This document shows positions 2,242-60,006 of a stretch of 64,000 nucleotides of DNA, one piece after another. Position 1 is the first letter of the stretch; every line of letters begins with the position of its first letter. The stretch is from a phage, in sequence record PZ445435.1; one strand, 5' to 3'. The notes beneath the pieces were generated by a model. It ran no database searches. It was not told where the DNA came from and was given only the letters and a program-made list of their open reading frames with translations. The position numbers and the translations under genes are program-made.

Positions 2242-2264
2242 GATGTTTAATTGCGGTACAGGTA

Positions 2265-2294
2265 TATAATATCATATCCTGTACCAAAGTAAAC
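2265..2294 (-). promoter_or_regulatory. T4-type early promoter (-35 GTTTAC, -10 TATTAT region)
   Basis: GTTTAC at 2294..2289, -10 about 17-18 nt downstream; palindrome gtacagg...cctgtac encloses the -10. Confidence 0.5.
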
Positions 2295-2629: not shown

Positions 2630-2656
2630 TTTATTCTCCTTTGTTTGTGTAAGATA

Positions 2657-2686
2657 ATACTATCACAAAGGAACCATACTGTAAAC
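2657..2686 (-). promoter_or_regulatory. T4-type early promoter (-35 GTTTACA, -10 TAGTAT)
   Basis: Motif match and spacing; just downstream of a terminator hairpin. Confidence 0.5.
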
Positions 2687-8990: not shown

Positions 8991-9018
8991 AAAGTCCTCA
9001 TGTTATGTCAGTAAAATT

Positions 9019-9048
9019 ACTATAACACAACACGAGGGACTTGTAAAC
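9019..9048 (-). promoter_or_regulatory. T4-type early promoter (-35 GTTTACA, -10 TATAGT)
   Basis: Motif and 17-18 nt spacing upstream of 8990 start. Confidence 0.5.
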
Positions 9049-17974: not shown

Positions 17975-18002
17975 TTTATTCTCCTCGGTAGTTGATAGGG
18001 TA

Positions 18003-18032
18003 ATAGTATCACACTACTACCCTTCTGTAAAC
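18003..18032 (-). promoter_or_regulatory. T4-type early promoter with conserved leader cassette
   Basis: GTTTACA ... TGATACTAT then leader CCCTATCAACTACCGAGGAG, also seen near 38284 and 38791. Confidence 0.55.
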
Positions 18033-37936: not shown

Positions 37937-38155
37937 TCATTTTACACCATTCCAAATTGTTTCAACTACGGATTTTAAACCATTCTGATGAATATCCATT
38001 CCGACTACCGCCATCAAATAGATTCCAACTACAACTGAACCTAAGGCAAAAATCAGCATGAAAATGAATAAAGCCGGAAAAATATTATCGAAAAACCATT
38101 CAATAAATGTAAAAGCACTGCGTTTACGCTTCATATTTTCCTCACATAAATCCAA
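37937..38155 (-). CDS. small membrane protein (72 aa)
   Basis: Two predicted TM helices. Confidence 0.4.
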   Translation of the reverse strand: MDLCEENMKRKRSAFTFIEWFFDNIFPALFIFMLIFALGSVVVGIYLMAVVGMDIHQNGLKSVVETIWNGVK

Positions 38156-38255
38156 AGTAAACGTTTAATACATCAATCATTAAAACGATTGGGAATATAC
38201 TCAAAACTACTAGTATTATAACTACATTCCATATAGCTTTAACAATCTTTTTCAT
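38142..38255 (-). CDS. small single-TM peptide (37 aa, internal start of track ORF)
   Basis: Start follows promoter and GGAGGA SD. Confidence 0.35.
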   Translation of the reverse strand: MKKIVKAIWNVVIILVVLSIFPIVLMIDVLNVYFGFM

Positions 38256-38283
38256 TTTCTGTTCCTCCGTAGTTGATAGGGTA

Positions 38284-38313
38284 ATAGTACCACGGAAGAA
38301 CAGTCTTGTAAAC
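38284..38313 (-). promoter_or_regulatory. T4-type early promoter with conserved leader cassette
   Basis: Near-identical to the 18003 and 38791 copies. Confidence 0.55.
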
Positions 38314-38498: not shown

Positions 38499-38762
38499 TC
38501 ATAGTTCAATCTCAGCGATTTTCATTTTATTACTATTAATAGCCTCTTTAAGACTATCTGAAAGAATTACATTCCAGTGGTCATTCATATGACCATTAAC
38601 TAAGCGTGTAATTTCTTCAGGAGTTGAAAAATAAGGCTGATCAGACTCCCAATGCGATAATCCTAAGCGAGTATAAATCATGCCTTCATCATCGCTAGAA
38701 TATTCAACTGACACAAACTCATCAGTTATTTTATGTTTAGCGTAATAAAATTTAAATTTCAT
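38499..38762 (-). CDS. hypothetical protein (87 aa)
   Basis: ORF track. Confidence 0.45.
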   Translation of the reverse strand: MKFKFYYAKHKITDEFVSVEYSSDDEGMIYTRLGLSHWESDQPYFSTPEEITRLVNGHMNDHWNVILSDSLKEAINSNKMKIAEIEL

Positions 38763-38790: not shown

Positions 38791-38820
38791 ATAGTACCAC
38801 GGTCCTTGTGGTATGTAAAC
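38791..38820 (-). promoter_or_regulatory. T4-type early promoter with conserved leader cassette
   Basis: GTTTACA...TGGTACTAT then CCCTATCAACTACGGAGGAG. Confidence 0.55.
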
Positions 38821-43053: not shown

Positions 43054-43083
43054 ATTATACCACATCCTTGTGGTAAAGTAAAC
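43054..43083 (-). promoter_or_regulatory. T4-type early promoter (palindrome CCACATCCTTGTGG in spacer)
   Basis: GTTTAC ... GTATAAT on minus strand. Confidence 0.5.
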
Positions 43084-45788: not shown

Positions 45789-46208
45789 TTATTCCTTAAA
45801 GTGTACTTTCAACATCTGATACAAGGACCATGCCTGTTCATTATTTTCAATAGTAACTTTCATGACAGGAAATTCTGTGAAATCTTCTATTTGTTCTTGC
45901 TCTTCCTGCTTTTGCTCTTCGGACGCTTGATATGGATTTCCAACTTCGTCAAAGAACTCTGCTTCATTCGTGGAGAGCCAGATAAAGTTTTCATCAAGGA
46001 TATCACCGCCTGTTGCGTATCCAACCGTGCCAGTAGATGTCACAATTTTAGTAGGACGACTGAGATGGTCAACATCTAAAATTTTAAAAGGTTCCATACC
46101 TAAACGTCGTGCGTAGATTCCGTTATCAATATGGTCTTTAATAAAAGCTTCTTGAGCTTGTTTATTTTTAAATTGATACCATTTATTAACTTCAAATCTA
46201 ATAGCCAT
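45789..46208 (-). CDS. hypothetical protein (139 aa)
   Basis: ORF track. Confidence 0.45.
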
Positions 46209-46423
46209 TAATAAATTTCCTTCCAGTAAGTTGTACCGTCTTCAGTGATTTCACGGAATACACCATAAATCGGTTGTTTATCACCAACCTTTTCATACAC
46301 ATAAACCGAAGTCAAGTGAGTAAACTTGATGGTGTGTTCCTTTTGAACTACTACCAAATCTGGATCGAATAATACATCTTCAAATTCGTCATTAGTGCAA
46401 TTCTGAACAATTTTACGTTTCAT
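46208..46423 (-). CDS. hypothetical protein (71 aa)
   Basis: ORF track. Confidence 0.4.
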
Positions 46424-46436
46424 TACAATTTCCTCA

Positions 46437-46718
46437 TTAATTGAACAGTGGAGCGATGCGTTTCAGAAGAGTAGCAGCACCTTTAGCGAATTTTACATCA
46501 TGAAAAACAGTTTCTTCTTCCGTTACAACACGAGCTTTAATGTTTTCACAATCCCAATTTTTGCGAACAATCTTCAAAAGCTGCAGTAAATCTTTACATT
46601 CAGCAATATCGATAACACATCCACGAGAATCTTCCATTATCGCACGATAACCGTAAGCCATACCATAATCATTGAAAGATTGCTCGATGATAATTAAATT
46701 TTCCATTTTATTCTCCAA
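46437..46718 (-). CDS. hypothetical protein (93 aa)
   Basis: ORF track. Confidence 0.4.
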   Translation of the reverse strand: MENKMENLIIIEQSFNDYGMAYGYRAIMEDSRGCVIDIAECKDLLQLLKIVRKNWDCENIKARVVTEEETVFHDVKFAKGAATLLKRIAPLFN

Positions 46719-46803
46719 GTTGTTTTCTGTATCAGTAGTTGATATTGATATAGTACCATAATCAACTACTGATGTATATAGTTTTATGAAAAAATTTTAA
46801 ACT

Positions 46804-47295
46804 TTATGCATAGCGAGCTTTGCTATAGTGTTTAATCCAACTTTCAGGAATGACTTTGTATGTTCCTAAAAATACCGCGTTGTATAACTTAACGCCATCT
46901 TCTACCCATTGATCAGTAATGTATGCACACATAGCGCGAGTACGGTTAACAACACCTTCCTCACCTTCAGTAAATTCAAACTCATAAGGAGCAACGAACT
47001 TAATAGCCTGACCGAGTTTCCACTTAAAGTCTACACCTACATGCGAAGTATCAATCGTTTCAATTCCTTTAGCAGGAACAGCTTTCAAAAACGCAGATTC
47101 AAGAAATTTCGCACGAACATAGCCAAACTGAGGTTTAGACTTTCCATCTTTAGGAATGATACGCACTTTTACTTCAGAATCTTCATCTTTAACACCGTGT
47201 TTAAGCTGAATGCTTACAACTTCGACCAATTTTCCTGCCGCTTTAGAGCGGGATTTATCAGATACACGAGCTAATTCACCAATATTAATAATCAT
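46804..47295 (-). CDS. possible MotB-like protein (163 aa)
   Basis: Size and position between 39 and dexA. Confidence 0.4.
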   Translation of the reverse strand: MIINIGELARVSDKSRSKAAGKLVEVVSIQLKHGVKDEDSEVKVRIIPKDGKSKPQFGYVRAKFLESAFLKAVPAKGIETIDTSHVGVDFKWKLGQAIKFVAPYEFEFTEGEEGVVNRTRAMCAYITDQWVEDGVKLYNAVFLGTYKVIPESWIKHYSKARYA

Positions 47296-47339
47296 AGTTA
47301 TCTCTCACTTGTTAAAAAGATTTTATACTCCACGGGACC

Positions 47340-47369
47340 ATTATACTCTGGTCCCAAGAGTTTGTAAAC
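47340..47369 (-). promoter_or_regulatory. T4-type early promoter (GTTTACA, 18 nt, TATAAT)
   Basis: Consensus -10 embedded in inverted repeat GGGACCA...TGGTCCC. Confidence 0.6.
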
Positions 47370-47806
47370 TAGCTTACACGAACATTAATCACTGCGCTGC
47401 GAGGAACTACAGAGTACTCTCCAGCATGAACTACGTTCAGAAGTTCAACACCATCTTCAATCCACTGATCAGTCACCCATCCACCCACAGGATTCGCGAA
47501 TGGACGACGAATATAAACTGCCTTACACAGTAGATCAGTTGGATCTTCAGGTTTTTCAATTTCTGTCAATAGACTAAAATCTTTTTCATAAATAATAAGC
47601 GGTGATACCATTCCATAATAGTTTCTAATTTCAATATACATCATACCGATAAGAATTCCGCTATTAACACTAATAACAGTAAAAGGATATCCGCCAGTTA
47701 AACCAAGAAGTTCACAAAACTTATTATGAGCTGTATTAGACAGTACCGAAAAATTCTTAATTTCATCAAATTTTTTCAATTGATAAACAGCATTATTTTT
47801 AATCAT
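47369..47806 (-). CDS. hypothetical protein (145 aa), C-terminal domain paralogous to upstream 163-aa protein
   Basis: Shared motif TDQWxEDGVxLxNxV. Confidence 0.45.
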   Translation of the reverse strand: MIKNNAVYQLKKFDEIKNFSVLSNTAHNKFCELLGLTGGYPFTVISVNSGILIGMMYIEIRNYYGMVSPLIIYEKDFSLLTEIEKPEDPTDLLCKAVYIRRPFANPVGGWVTDQWIEDGVELLNVVHAGEYSVVPRSAVINVRVS

Positions 47807-47816
47807 AATTTTCTCT

Positions 47817-48320
47817 TTAATCTAAGGTAATAAAGCCTTTTAATTCGGCATGTGACTTGCGGAACATTACTTGATGCCCACCAATGATAACTTTATCTTC
47901 AGGTACTTCGTATACAGCGAGATAAAATCCTTTAGAAGCTAATTCTTCACGCTCTTCTCGTGTGAACCATCTCATCATATCATATTCACTAGCAAAAGCA
48001 AAATGATAAAGAGCTATAAACCATCCTGGAATATAGTGATCTACGCCTACATATTCTTCTTTCTCAAAATTAGTATTAATTGCTATATTAGCATTTTTAA
48101 CTAATAGTTTGTCTTCGTGCGGAAGAGGAATTCTTTTATTATCATTACTATGATGCATAAAATTAGGTCTGTCATAACCTACGTGTAATAACCACTCTTC
48201 GCTCCATGAATCCATTATACTCCTGTACGGCGTTATTTGAACACAAAGATCTCGACGTATTGTTATAGCATCTTCATAATTAAGAATACTAAATGATGAT
48301 TCAACACGATAAATTTTCAT
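47817..48320 (-). CDS. hypothetical protein (167 aa from internal ATG)
   Basis: GAGGA SD before internal ATG; track start would overlap the promoter. Confidence 0.45.
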   Translation of the reverse strand: MKIYRVESSFSILNYEDAITIRRDLCVQITPYRSIMDSWSEEWLLHVGYDRPNFMHHSNDNKRIPLPHEDKLLVKNANIAINTNFEKEEYVGVDHYIPGWFIALYHFAFASEYDMMRWFTREEREELASKGFYLAVYEVPEDKVIIGGHQVMFRKSHAELKGFITLD

Positions 48321-48347
48321 TTTATTATCCTCAGTAGCTATGGTGTT

Positions 48348-48377
48348 ATAATACCACAACTAACCGAGGAAGTAAAC
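48348..48377 (-). promoter_or_regulatory. T4-type early promoter
   Basis: GTTTAC ... GGTATTATAA. Confidence 0.5.
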
Positions 48378-48383
48378 AACTTT

Positions 48384-49067
48384 TTATCGTTTTGTTGGAA
48401 GAGATAGAGGATCGCACTCTTCCTCTGACGGAGCATCTTCAAGACCCATAGCATATCGCAAAGCATACTTCATCATCAGGATGTCTTTCGCACAATCATG
48501 AATAGAATCATGCGCAACGAATCCATCTAAAGTTCCCTTTGGAAGAGGACATGTAGTCATATCACGAACAAGCAGAAGTGCTTCAATTCTGGTACGAATA
48601 TCACGCTGATTCCAGAATTTACAAGGTTCTAACTTAAACGTATCAAGCTCATTCTCAGAAACGCCATTAAGACGTTGAATATCGCGAATGAGATCGACTA
48701 AAATTGGAAAATCAAACGACATTCCACGGCACCAACCTTGAGATTTCCAAGGATCGATATTATGTGCATTGATGTAATCGTTGAATTTTGCAATACCATC
48801 AATGGTGCTTACATCTTCATCGGATGGTGCAATATTTTTTCGAGCTTCAGGAGACTGATTTTTCCACCATTCGATAGTGCTTTTAGTAAAAAGACGATGT
48901 CCTTTTTGGCTTTTTAAATCAAATTTGATTTTAATGCCACGTGAAACTAATTCATCAAATGTTTCAACAACTTCTGGGTTAGGGTCAAAGGCAATAACAG
49001 CCAAATCAATAACCGCTGCTTTTTCACCGCTTCCCATTGTTTCAAAATCTATAATAAAATCAAACAT
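48384..49067 (-). CDS. dexA: exonuclease A (DEDD 3'-5' exonuclease)
   Basis: 227 aa; N-terminal FDFETMG exo motif. Confidence 0.8.
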   Translation of the reverse strand: MFDFIIDFETMGSGEKAAVIDLAVIAFDPNPEVVETFDELVSRGIKIKFDLKSQKGHRLFTKSTIEWWKNQSPEARKNIAPSDEDVSTIDGIAKFNDYINAHNIDPWKSQGWCRGMSFDFPILVDLIRDIQRLNGVSENELDTFKLEPCKFWNQRDIRTRIEALLLVRDMTTCPLPKGTLDGFVAHDSIHDCAKDILMMKYALRYAMGLEDAPSEEECDPLSLPTKR

Positions 49068-52669: not shown

Positions 52670-53289
52670 TCAACTACCTCAATATCATAAACTTTAAATG
52701 TTCCAAATGAATCGTGTAATTTTTCTTTTGAAATAGAAGTTATTCTATACTTTCCAATTGGAATCATCCATTCCTGTTCACGCACAATCATCATTAAGTT
52801 ATCAGTACGCTCTGAATCTAGCCCATCAGTATCTTCATACGTATACTTAAACTCAGTATTAGGAGAAGAAAGTATAATATCGCTGATATGGTCAGAATAA
52901 TTAAAAGCTTTATCAGTTTTTAAGCGAAGTATTATTTTAGTAAAATATTCAGCATAAGAAAAAGAACATGCTGTGAGCAAACTAGTAGTAAATGAATCTA
53001 CTCTATTCGTTGAAAACACTTCTCCAACTTGTAAATCTTTAATAAGTTCTTCTGTTGATTTTGATATACCACGATATAACTGATAAGGCGATTTAGTTAA
53101 ATGCTTTTTAACGATTTTATTCAACTGCTGATGAAGAGCTTCATTCTTTTTAGCTTCCATACATTGCCAAAGAATTGACTGCTCAAAGTCAGTAAATTTT
53201 TCACAGACTTTTTTATACATATCATATTGAAAATCAACGCTTTCAGCTTTTATAGATAACTGTTCAACATCTGCAAGATTAATAATCAT
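52666..53289 (-). CDS. modB: ADP-ribosyltransferase ModB
   Basis: 207 aa. Confidence 0.75.
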   Translation of the reverse strand: MIINLADVEQLSIKAESVDFQYDMYKKVCEKFTDFEQSILWQCMEAKKNEALHQQLNKIVKKHLTKSPYQLYRGISKSTEELIKDLQVGEVFSTNRVDSFTTSLLTACSFSYAEYFTKIILRLKTDKAFNYSDHISDIILSSPNTEFKYTYEDTDGLDSERTDNLMMIVREQEWMIPIGKYRITSISKEKLHDSFGTFKVYDIEVVE

Positions 53290-53315
53290 GATAGCCTCCG
53301 TATACTTCAGAAGCT

Positions 53316-53345
53316 ATCATATCATTGTTAGGAAGGAAAGTAAAC
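53316..53345 (-). promoter_or_regulatory. candidate T4-type early promoter
   Basis: GTTTAC with weaker -10. Confidence 0.4.
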
Positions 53346-59947: not shown

Positions 59948-59976
59948 AACAATCTCCTCATTTAACCAACAAGACT

Positions 59977-60006
59977 ACTATACCATAGTCTTGTCAGCTT
60001 GTAAAC
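59977..60006 (-). promoter_or_regulatory. T4-type early promoter (GTTTACA, TATAGT within inverted repeat AAGACTA...TAGTCTT)
   Basis: Motif and spacing; overlaps gene 41 stop. Confidence 0.55.

Follow-up and report, generated by a model that had tools for sequence, protein, structure and literature searches.

Stem-loops embedded in the early promoters of T4-type phages have been described as promoter-early stem-loops (PeSLs) by Arbiol et al. (2010, Genome Biol Evol 2:140; PMC2839356) for RB49/phi1, where they lie mostly between the -35 and -10 elements or overlap the -10, with G-T pairs marked, and where terminator/attenuator and recombination roles were proposed for them. Comeau et al. (2014, Genome Biol Evol 6:1611; PMC4122927) extended PeSLs to the T4/PST pair, with a promoter consensus of TTTACW-N17-TAYWAT and stems of the form AGNA-loop-TCNT. 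A second described arrangement is found at the T4 genes e (lysozyme), soc, 49 and I-TevI, where the promoter lies inside a hairpin that sequesters the Shine-Dalgarno sequence (SD) (PMC3014915).

The window examined here is a 64,000-nt stretch of phage DNA (sequence record PZ445435.1), analysed at its full length. An earlier note on this DNA had listed five early promoters in which the -10 or the spacer lies inside a perfect palindrome. All five inverted repeats were found on the minus strand, and the -10 or spacer was inside the palindrome at each of them, an arrangement that generalises to the promoters of relatives; the positions given for the repeats correspond roughly to the promoters and not to the repeats themselves. 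The comparison with T4 that the note had proposed also held, with the same hairpins observed at T4 P-dmd (T4 coordinate 20612), P-rIIA.1 (2458), P-modB (13186) and P-motB.2 (8218). Promoter-embedded hairpins are thus real, conserved and already known as PeSLs. Each of the five sites has a strong sigma-70-type promoter (e.g. TTTACA-17-TATAAT, 47368-47340) with a stable stem-loop overlapping or adjoining it, is intergenic with a stop codon and AT-rich sequence on its 5' side and an SD and start codon on its 3' side, and belongs to a kind of cassette that is repeated at several loci, here and in the published cases; upstream stop, AT-rich stretch, sigma-70-like early promoter, stem-loop, SD and start codon are common to both. 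The feature is documented in T4-type genomes, which makes it ordinary as a discovery; it is still of use for annotation. We consider it probable that these sites are PeSL composites of a T4-type phage whose hairpin acts on read-through RNA.

Promoter hairpins of the window

The window derives from a T4-like phage (Tequatrovirus), and its genes run from the gene 31/cd region through nrd, td, 32, the tail-fibre genes, motA, rII, 39, motB, dda, modA/B and 41 to uvsX. Over 46000-49000 it matches Escherichia phage PaulHMueller (MZ501098) with 100% identity and many relatives with 96-99%, and at least 700 Tequatrovirus genomes have a match to this region. Identity to PaulHMueller is limited to about 45.3 kb onward; the first 45 kb, which is 96-98% identical to other Tequatrovirus genomes with indels, departs from it, so the source genome is mosaic. 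Since the early genes are almost all on the minus strand, the palindromes must be read on that (sense) strand, and all features below lie on it. An ORF map of the window was made anew, and 17 strong minus-strand early promoters were taken, all in non-coding gaps. From relatives, 76 IMG/VR loci were fetched using gp39 and gp41 as anchors (59-100% protein identity), and 168 non-redundant GTTTAC-type promoters were extracted from them, a pool that includes paralogous cassettes and related phages, so that counts drawn from it are partly dependent events. Curated promoter or terminator features were sought in the T4 records NC_000866 and AF158101, and none were present there.

The motB early promoter (47327..47368) has its -35 (TTTACA, 47368-47363) and -10 (TATAAT, 47345-47340) at 17-nt spacing, and its embedded hairpin was recognised by folding and by covariation in orthologs and paralogous cassettes. 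The core stem GGGACCA/TGGTCCC at 47355-47334 encloses an 8-nt loop, gagTATAA, and the extended stem (47361-47327) folds at -19.7 kcal/mol. At this promoter the -35 adjoins the TAG stop (47371-47369) of the upstream ORF, and the same TAG-TTTACA junction (47371-47363 at motB) recurs at 60008-60000 in the dmd early promoter (59964..60005), which directly follows the gene 41 stop and for which we had 45 orthologous loci and the T4 ortholog. The dmd -35 is TTTACA (60005-60000) and its -10 TATAGT (59982-59977). The repeat reported there was present and is longer than had been claimed, with 9 bp rather than 7: the core stem is ACAAGACTA-tggtatag-TAGTCTTGT at 59994-59969, in the same register as that of motB, and the extended stem (59999-59964) reaches -18.9 kcal/mol. 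A third promoter, in front of ORF 1864-2229 (2255..2293; 16-nt spacer; fold enrichment), has a -35 of TTTACT at 2293-2288, a -10 of TATTAT at 2271-2266 and an 8-bp hairpin, GGTACAGG-15 nt-CCTGTACC, at 2285-2255 (-16.1 kcal/mol). In these three of the five (motB 47368, dmd 60005 and the ORF promoter 2293) the -10 is in the loop between the arms.

The remaining two (rIIA.1 43082 and the ORF promoter 38819) carry a hairpin confined to the spacer region. The rIIA.1 early promoter (43054..43082), supported by fold enrichment and by recurrence of its cassette, combines a -35 of TTTACT (43082-43077) and a -10 of TATAAT (43059-43054) with the 7-bp hairpin TACCACA-agga-TGTGGTA at 43075-43058. The early promoter of ORF 38499-38762 (38791..38819; fold enrichment) has its -35 (TTTACA) at 38819-38814, its -10 (TACTAT) at 38796-38791 and a 6-bp hairpin, TACCAC-aaggacc-GTGGTA, at 38813-38795. 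The 3' arm of both consists of the TGTGG extended -10 together with the first TA of the -10. All five sites fit the early consensus G-TTTAC[A/T], 16 or 17 nt, TAnnnT; they are intergenic, with an SD and ATG within 28-47 nt downstream, and the genes that follow are motB, dmd, rIIA.1 and two ORFs of unknown function. A sixth promoter-hairpin, absent from the earlier list, was observed by fold enrichment at 17994..18031 (-35 at 18031-18026; -10 TACTAT), with GGGTAGTAG.../...TACTATTACCC at 18025-17994 folding at -15.9 kcal/mol.

Several further elements were observed near these promoters. In the gap between motB and the ORF that follows, at 46775-46731, ATCAGTAGTTGAT/ATCAACTACTGAT form a perfect 13-bp stem around tatggTACTATat (-19.7 kcal/mol); the sole -35 candidate is a weak TATACA 17 nt upstream, and the element resembles a promoter-hairpin whose -35 has degraded. 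At 5725-5681, TAG-TTTACG is followed by GGTAGAG-ttgtgaTATTATgg-CTCTACC with a -10-like element and TGTGA in the loop, and the -35-like hexamer is only 12 nt upstream of the -10-like element. Judged by its sequence, it is a possible 'degraded PeSL' in the sense of Comeau et al. 2014 (PMC4122927). Just 3' of the motB hairpin, at 47331-47321, GGAGTATAAAA matches 6 of the 7 positions after GGAG in the consensus of strong RegB sites, GG*AGRAYARAA; it is distinct from the motB SD, and its GGAG is kept in paralogous cassettes of relatives (GGAGAATAAAC, GGAGCACAAAA).

Sequences repeated between cassettes were also observed. In the IMG/VR contigs L037/L039, L041/L046 and L043/L044, a near-identical 45-nt cassette, GTGTACAAACTCTT-stem-GAGTATAA-stem-ACTGGAG, is present in two copies per genome, the first before motB and the second before an unrelated gene starting MTTYMTRR, and the stems differ between the copies in two of the three genomes. 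Within the window, aaaattttttcacaaaa(c/t)ggTTTACA is found upstream of three promoters (-35 at 38819, 35172 and 18764) and TACTATtaccctatcaactac(c/g)gagga downstream of three (-35 at 38819, 38312 and 18031); such repeated flanks are possible substrates for recombination between cassettes. The spacer-only hairpins (43075-43058 and 38813-38795, with those of L020, L055, L066, L067, L072, L078 and others) keep a GGA in the loop (AGGA, TGGA, AAGGACC) as their stems covary, and the pattern CCACAnGGAn(1-2)GTGG had 39 occurrences, all of them in sense orientation, of which 35 directly follow a -35. The GGA loop was considered as a RegB-type loop motif and dropped, GGA at -22 to -19 being generally enriched in spacers.

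Enrichment, fixed register and covariation of the hairpins

The window contains 123 perfect repeats (stem 7 or longer, loop 3-14), or about 1 every 520 bp, compared with about 62 in shuffled sequence. Taken alone, one 7-bp repeat is accordingly weak evidence, and chance palindromes in AT-rich DNA, aided by a partly self-complementary consensus (TGTGG, TATA), have that frequency in their favour, as well as the 3' arm of the spacer-only class, which is the conserved TGTGG element. The link of palindromes to promoters is nevertheless not chance. Segments of 45 nt from the 17 window promoters had a mean minimum free energy (MFE) of -7.85 kcal/mol versus -4.99 +/- 0.53 kcal/mol after column permutation among promoters, which preserves the promoter consensus, and none of 1000 permutations reached the observed value. 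A fold of -15 kcal/mol or below was reached by 4 of the 17 segments and by 0.46% of coding windows (binomial P ~1e-6). Among the 168 promoters of relatives, 63% had a stem score of at least 7 (21% of random segments) and 23% a score of at least 10 (1.1% of random segments).

One exact register stands out. A Watson-Crick stem of at least 7 bp in which -16 pairs with -7, the last T of the -10, leaving an 8-nt loop of TGn+TATAA, was found in 30 of the 168 promoters versus 0.3 +/- 0.5 under column permutation, and the motB and dmd promoters of the window belong to this -16:-7 register. With G.U pairs allowed, runs of at least 6 pairs occurred in 47 promoters at -16:-7 versus 1-7 at neighbouring registers. 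The spacer-only class, with stems of at least 6 bp, accounted for 16 of the 168 (1.1 +/- 1.0 expected). A matrix of per-cell pairing z-scores gave weak signals (best mean z 1.5); each hairpin is present in a subset of promoters only, so run-length statistics are needed rather than per-cell scores. Overall, the short hairpin is carried by about a fifth to a third of early promoters. In an independent covariation test, an ungapped alignment of 147 unselected promoters was compared with 500 shuffles and with slid registers: 58.0% of cells were paired versus 52.7 +/- 0.9 in shuffles, the covariation score was 0.312 versus 0.238 +/- 0.011, and both values exceeded all 500 shuffles and every slid register (29-45% paired). 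Consensus-preserving column-permutation nulls were exceeded 10- to 100-fold and compensatory substitutions are present; chance origin is refuted by the MFE permutation, the fixed-register count and the 147-promoter test, and we give it next to no probability.

Compensatory substitutions are seen in these stems. At motB the stem series runs GGGACCA/TGGTCCC (window), GGGACCA/TGGTCCT, GGGATCA/TGGTCCT, GGGGCCA/TGGTCCC and GGGGTCA/TGACCCC, in which two pairs are fully compensated via G.U intermediates. Directly after the gene 41 stop, unrelated arms occupy one position across phages (45 loci), including ACAAGACTA/TAGTCTTGT, GGTAGGGCTA/TAGCCCTACC, GTGTAGGAGC/GCTCCTACAC and GATAGGAC/GTCCTATC, and individual stem positions show 2-6 standard pair types each. 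Internal transition mismatches of G.U and A.C type numbered 47:18 in promoter stems versus 159:143 in random stems (Fisher p = 0.004); the G.U excess was significant at stem scores of at least 7 and at least 8, with p = 0.15 versus control at scores of at least 9. Such a bias favours, on comparative grounds, a structure read on sense RNA over a duplex or cruciform signal. From these comparisons of promoter sequences the pairing is shown to be under selection, fixed in position, variable in sequence and biased to the sense strand.

The same comparisons bear on the proposal that the palindromes are operators, through which a dimeric repressor would shut off early promoters. The dyad has its centre at the -10, so that a protein bound there would obstruct RNA polymerase, and the mechanism of early-promoter shut-off in T4 is not fully explained (PMC2988021). 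Within one genome, though, GGGACCA, ACAAGACTA, GGTACAGG and TACCACA have no half-site in common, which makes a common repressor unlikely, and no palindromic half-site shared between promoters was found in the window or across orthologs. Arms covary freely across phages to the point of being wholly different between orthologous promoters; many stems are imperfect DNA palindromes that pair only via G.U as RNA, which breaks the DNA dyad; and the fraction of early promoters with a short hairpin, given above, also speaks against an operator. We regard this reading as highly improbable.

A DNA-level element of another kind, in which the palindromes are recombination or cruciform sites that shuffle promoter-gene cassettes (the PeSL mini-circles) and RNA structure is incidental, has more in its favour. 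An identical promoter-hairpin cassette precedes two unrelated genes in three genomes, a CCACAAGGATGTGG cassette is found after gene 39 in the window and after gene 41 in L066 and L067, promoter flanks are repeated inside the window, and mini-circles from PeSL-PeSL crossover have been reported (PMC2839356). Compensatory change and G.U intermediates on the sense strand only would not be expected for a duplex or cruciform signal, however; homologous recombination requires sequence identity and not dyad symmetry; and the register keeps a constant distance from the -10 and the start site. As the sole explanation it appears unlikely to us, although a recombination role at the DNA level may exist alongside an RNA role.

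Start site, read-through RNA and possible roles of the short hairpins

The start-site position was taken from sigma-70 geometry and from the logo of the 168 promoters, in which the nucleotide 7 nt downstream of the -10 is A in 71% and positions -4 to -1 before it are rich in pyrimidines. This placement of +1 agrees with the promoter numbering of Nolan et al. 2006 and with the +1A tendency in T4 dRNA-seq (bioRxiv 10.1101/2024.04.04.588121). Across the 168 promoters, 5' arms peak at -28 to -16 and 3' arms at -6 to +3 or at +11 to +23; in the fixed-register class the 3' arms end between -2 and +7. With the inferred +1 at the end of the 3' arm, a promoter's own transcript would be without the 5' arm and without most of the 3' arm, so the hairpin would be present only on RNA reading through from upstream promoters. 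Early transcripts that extend into downstream genes are standard T4 biology (PMC2988021), and restriction of the hairpin to such read-through transcripts is what the promoter geometry predicts. The earlier note's alternative to an operator, an RNA hairpin at the 5' end, is thus supported as RNA structure on read-through from upstream promoters. As a 5' hairpin of the promoter's own RNA we rejected it: the inferred start coincides with the 3' arm or follows it, and of 106 hairpins just 2 begin after the estimated start and so belong wholly to the promoter's own transcript. Both mechanisms suggested in that note were, as stated, mostly wrong.

Under the favoured reading, the promoter positions that RNA polymerase does not read, roughly -28 to -16 in the spacer and -7 to +3 in the discriminator, would encode the two hairpin arms, and the constrained TGn plus -10 would become the loop. 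The hairpin would appear only in upstream-initiated read-through RNA, where it would mark a cistron boundary on the polycistronic message. Two roles, separate or combined, may be envisaged. In one, the hairpin would sequester the pyrimidine-rich, anti-SD-like discriminator, so that the downstream ribosome binding site (RBS) stays open on read-through RNA; in the other, it would be a 3' barrier guarding the upstream cistron after cleavage at the next RBS.

For the former, the discriminator is anti-SD-like in that CTCC, CCTC and TCCT occur almost only upstream of +1. When the 5' arm of fixed-register hairpins was scrambled in silico, opening of the SD on read-through RNA cost 4.43 instead of 2.95 kcal/mol (p = 1e-7), with an increase of at least 1 kcal/mol in 15 of 30 and a decrease in none of the 30. 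The rise on scrambling makes insulation of the downstream RBS by the short hairpins a plausible role, with a modest predicted effect of about 1.5 kcal/mol. The five listed hairpins leave the SD free, with SD-AUG opening costs that differ between read-through and own RNA by no more than 2 kcal/mol. For the latter, the median distance from the end of a short hairpin to the SD is about 8 nt, and T4 SDs are commonly GGAG and cut by RegB, after which 3' exonucleases enter at the cut (PMC3014915). A short hairpin as 3' barrier for the upstream cistron is plausible from this placement.

The function proposed in the PeSL papers is that of an attenuator or terminator, in which the hairpin stops or lowers transcription from upstream promoters, with each gene then driven mainly from its own promoter. 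The hairpins are intergenic and directly follow the upstream stop codon, the structure would form only on read-through RNA, and the stem-loop of RB49 PeSL211/210 cut downstream lacZ about as much as rrnB T1 (PMC2839356), a result that leaves room for an attenuator role even without a U-tract. That lacZ assay mixes termination with effects of RNA processing or translation. Hairpin tails are 46% A and 22% T, with at least 5 T in 8 nt in only 3 of 31, and lacking a GC-rich stem followed by a U-tract the short hairpins are, by their sequence, not canonical terminators; the terminator scan flagged none of them and did flag the canonical UUCG terminator at 55488-55467. The same genomes use UUCG-loop, U-tailed terminators where needed (55488-55467; GGAGCttcgGCTCC-TTTTTT in relatives). 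We regard attenuation as a lesser possibility, and rather unlikely as the main function of the short hairpins.

Hairpins with a UUCG tetraloop were observed on the sense strand at 55488-55467, 2735-2716, 39690-39671, 44970-44953 and 61742-61723. The terminator at 55488-55467 is followed by TTTTCATTTT and is directly upstream of the -35 of promoter 55452, and the hairpin at 2735-2716 is followed by a T-run. In relatives with a true terminator after gene 41, the terminator is placed upstream of the -35.

Promoters paired with the Shine-Dalgarno sequence and relation to known systems

Besides the short hairpins we observed a second class with longer hairpins, in which the 5' arm is the spacer or -10 and the 3' arm is the SD or AUG. 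Four of these were characterised by folding and opening cost and one by a perfect repeat and opening cost. At the promoter of ORF 47817-48320, the T4 motB.2 ortholog (48328..48376), the spacer TCCTCGGTTAGTTGTGGT pairs with the SD-containing ACCATAGCTACTGAGGA (48370-48328; -23.5 kcal/mol), and opening of the SD-AUG region costs 13.1 kcal/mol on read-through RNA versus 2.3 on own RNA; orthologs of this promoter have unrelated arms that still reach the SD. At modB (53282..53344), the -10 TATGAT plus discriminator pair with the SD GGAGG and the AUG (53325-53282; -18.8 kcal/mol), at an opening cost of 16.8 kcal/mol on read-through versus 2.2 on own RNA. The modB pairing is conserved down to 36% protein identity, with compensatory change from GATAGC/GCTATC to GATGAC/GTCATC. 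The alc promoter (8996..9047) has a spacer that pairs with the SD region (9037-8996; -20.8 kcal/mol; 16.3 kcal/mol read-through versus 4.0 own RNA), and at the promoter of the small ORF 38142-38255 (37 aa; 38261..38312) the spacer GTTCTTCCGTGGT pairs with the SD-containing ACTACGGAGGAAC (38301-38261; -17.4 kcal/mol; 19.0 kcal/mol read-through versus 0.9 own RNA). In front of ORF 2297-2629 (110 aa; promoter 2638..2685), the spacer CCTTTGT (2671-2665) pairs with the SD-overlapping ACAAAGG (2644-2638), and the cost is 10.5 kcal/mol on read-through versus 0.1 on own RNA. In silico, SD opening at the five thus costs 10-18 kcal/mol more on read-through than on own RNA. Among relatives, 21 of 158 promoters had a spacer/discriminator complementary to the SD over 6 bp or more, versus 3.1 +/- 1.7 in shuffled and 8.7 +/- 2.4 in partner-swapped controls. 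The PeSL papers (PMC2839356, PMC4122927) and the T4 reviews consulted here make no mention of this class.

In the second class the same free positions would have the opposite outcome, pairing with the SD or AUG so that read-through copies are translationally silent. A tentative extension, which we put forward as possible and rather less than probable, is that spacer and discriminator form a genome-wide code for the fate of read-through RNA, with a short-hairpin and an SD/AUG-paired setting. In the first setting the fixed-register hairpin would neutralise the discriminator and cap the upstream cistron, so that the downstream gene is also translated from the polycistronic RNA. In the second (modB, alc and others) read-through would be silenced, and these genes, some of them with toxic takeover functions, would be made only while their own early promoter fires. 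Were such a code true, the e/soc/49/I-TevI paradigm would extend from late to early promoters, and PeSL stem-loops would gain a post-transcriptional role absent from PMC2839356, PMC4122927 and these T4 reviews. If the RNA-level reading is true, early-promoter spacers would hold a second layer of information that decides expression from long read-through messages, with a bearing on the expression timing of the takeover genes modB, alc, motB and dmd and on the behaviour of promoter cassettes moved in engineered phages. For annotation, palindromes at these promoters should not be taken as repressor operators or terminators.

Among known systems, the second class is most like e, soc, 49 and I-TevI, where the proximal start is inside or after the 5' arm, so that own transcripts are without the inhibitory strand and upstream-initiated RNA hides the SD/AUG. 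The modB, alc, 48376, 38312 and 2685 promoters have this property in silico (10-18 kcal/mol), whereas the five listed hairpins leave the SD untouched, with the small difference given above. The T4 cases also differ in that they use late promoters (TATAAATA) and silence early read-through, and the promoters here are early sigma-70 promoters. Rho-independent terminators of T4-type phages are similar in that they, too, are GC-containing sense-strand hairpins located between genes, immediately behind a stop codon; they have 4-nt UUCG loops, lie upstream of the -35 and have T-runs where the downstream sequence was examined, in contrast to the 8-15-nt loops holding the -10 and the A-rich tails of the hairpins described here. 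The early promoters of phage N4 are DNA hairpins with a 3-nt loop, involving extrusion of single-stranded DNA and recognised by the virion RNA polymerase, and a promoter element presented in a short hairpin is the point of likeness. N4 has a dedicated polymerase for this, whereas sigma-70 promoters of the standard duplex kind are present here, with evidence in favour of RNA rather than DNA structure.

The closest relation is to the PeSLs, whose AGNA-loop-TCNT motif corresponds to the pairing of AGGA at -22 to -19 with TCCT at -4 to -1. The published reading is of terminators or attenuators and recombination sites, and ours is of a read-through RNA hairpin without a U-tract; translation and the ribosome are not mentioned in PMC2839356, and the fixed register (-16:-7), the G.U bias of the sense strand, the absence of U-tracts in the T4 clade and the link to translation were not found in PMC2839356, PMC4122927 or the T4 reviews consulted. 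The fixed register, sense-strand bias, lack of U-tracts and link to SD accessibility are refinements of the known PeSLs.
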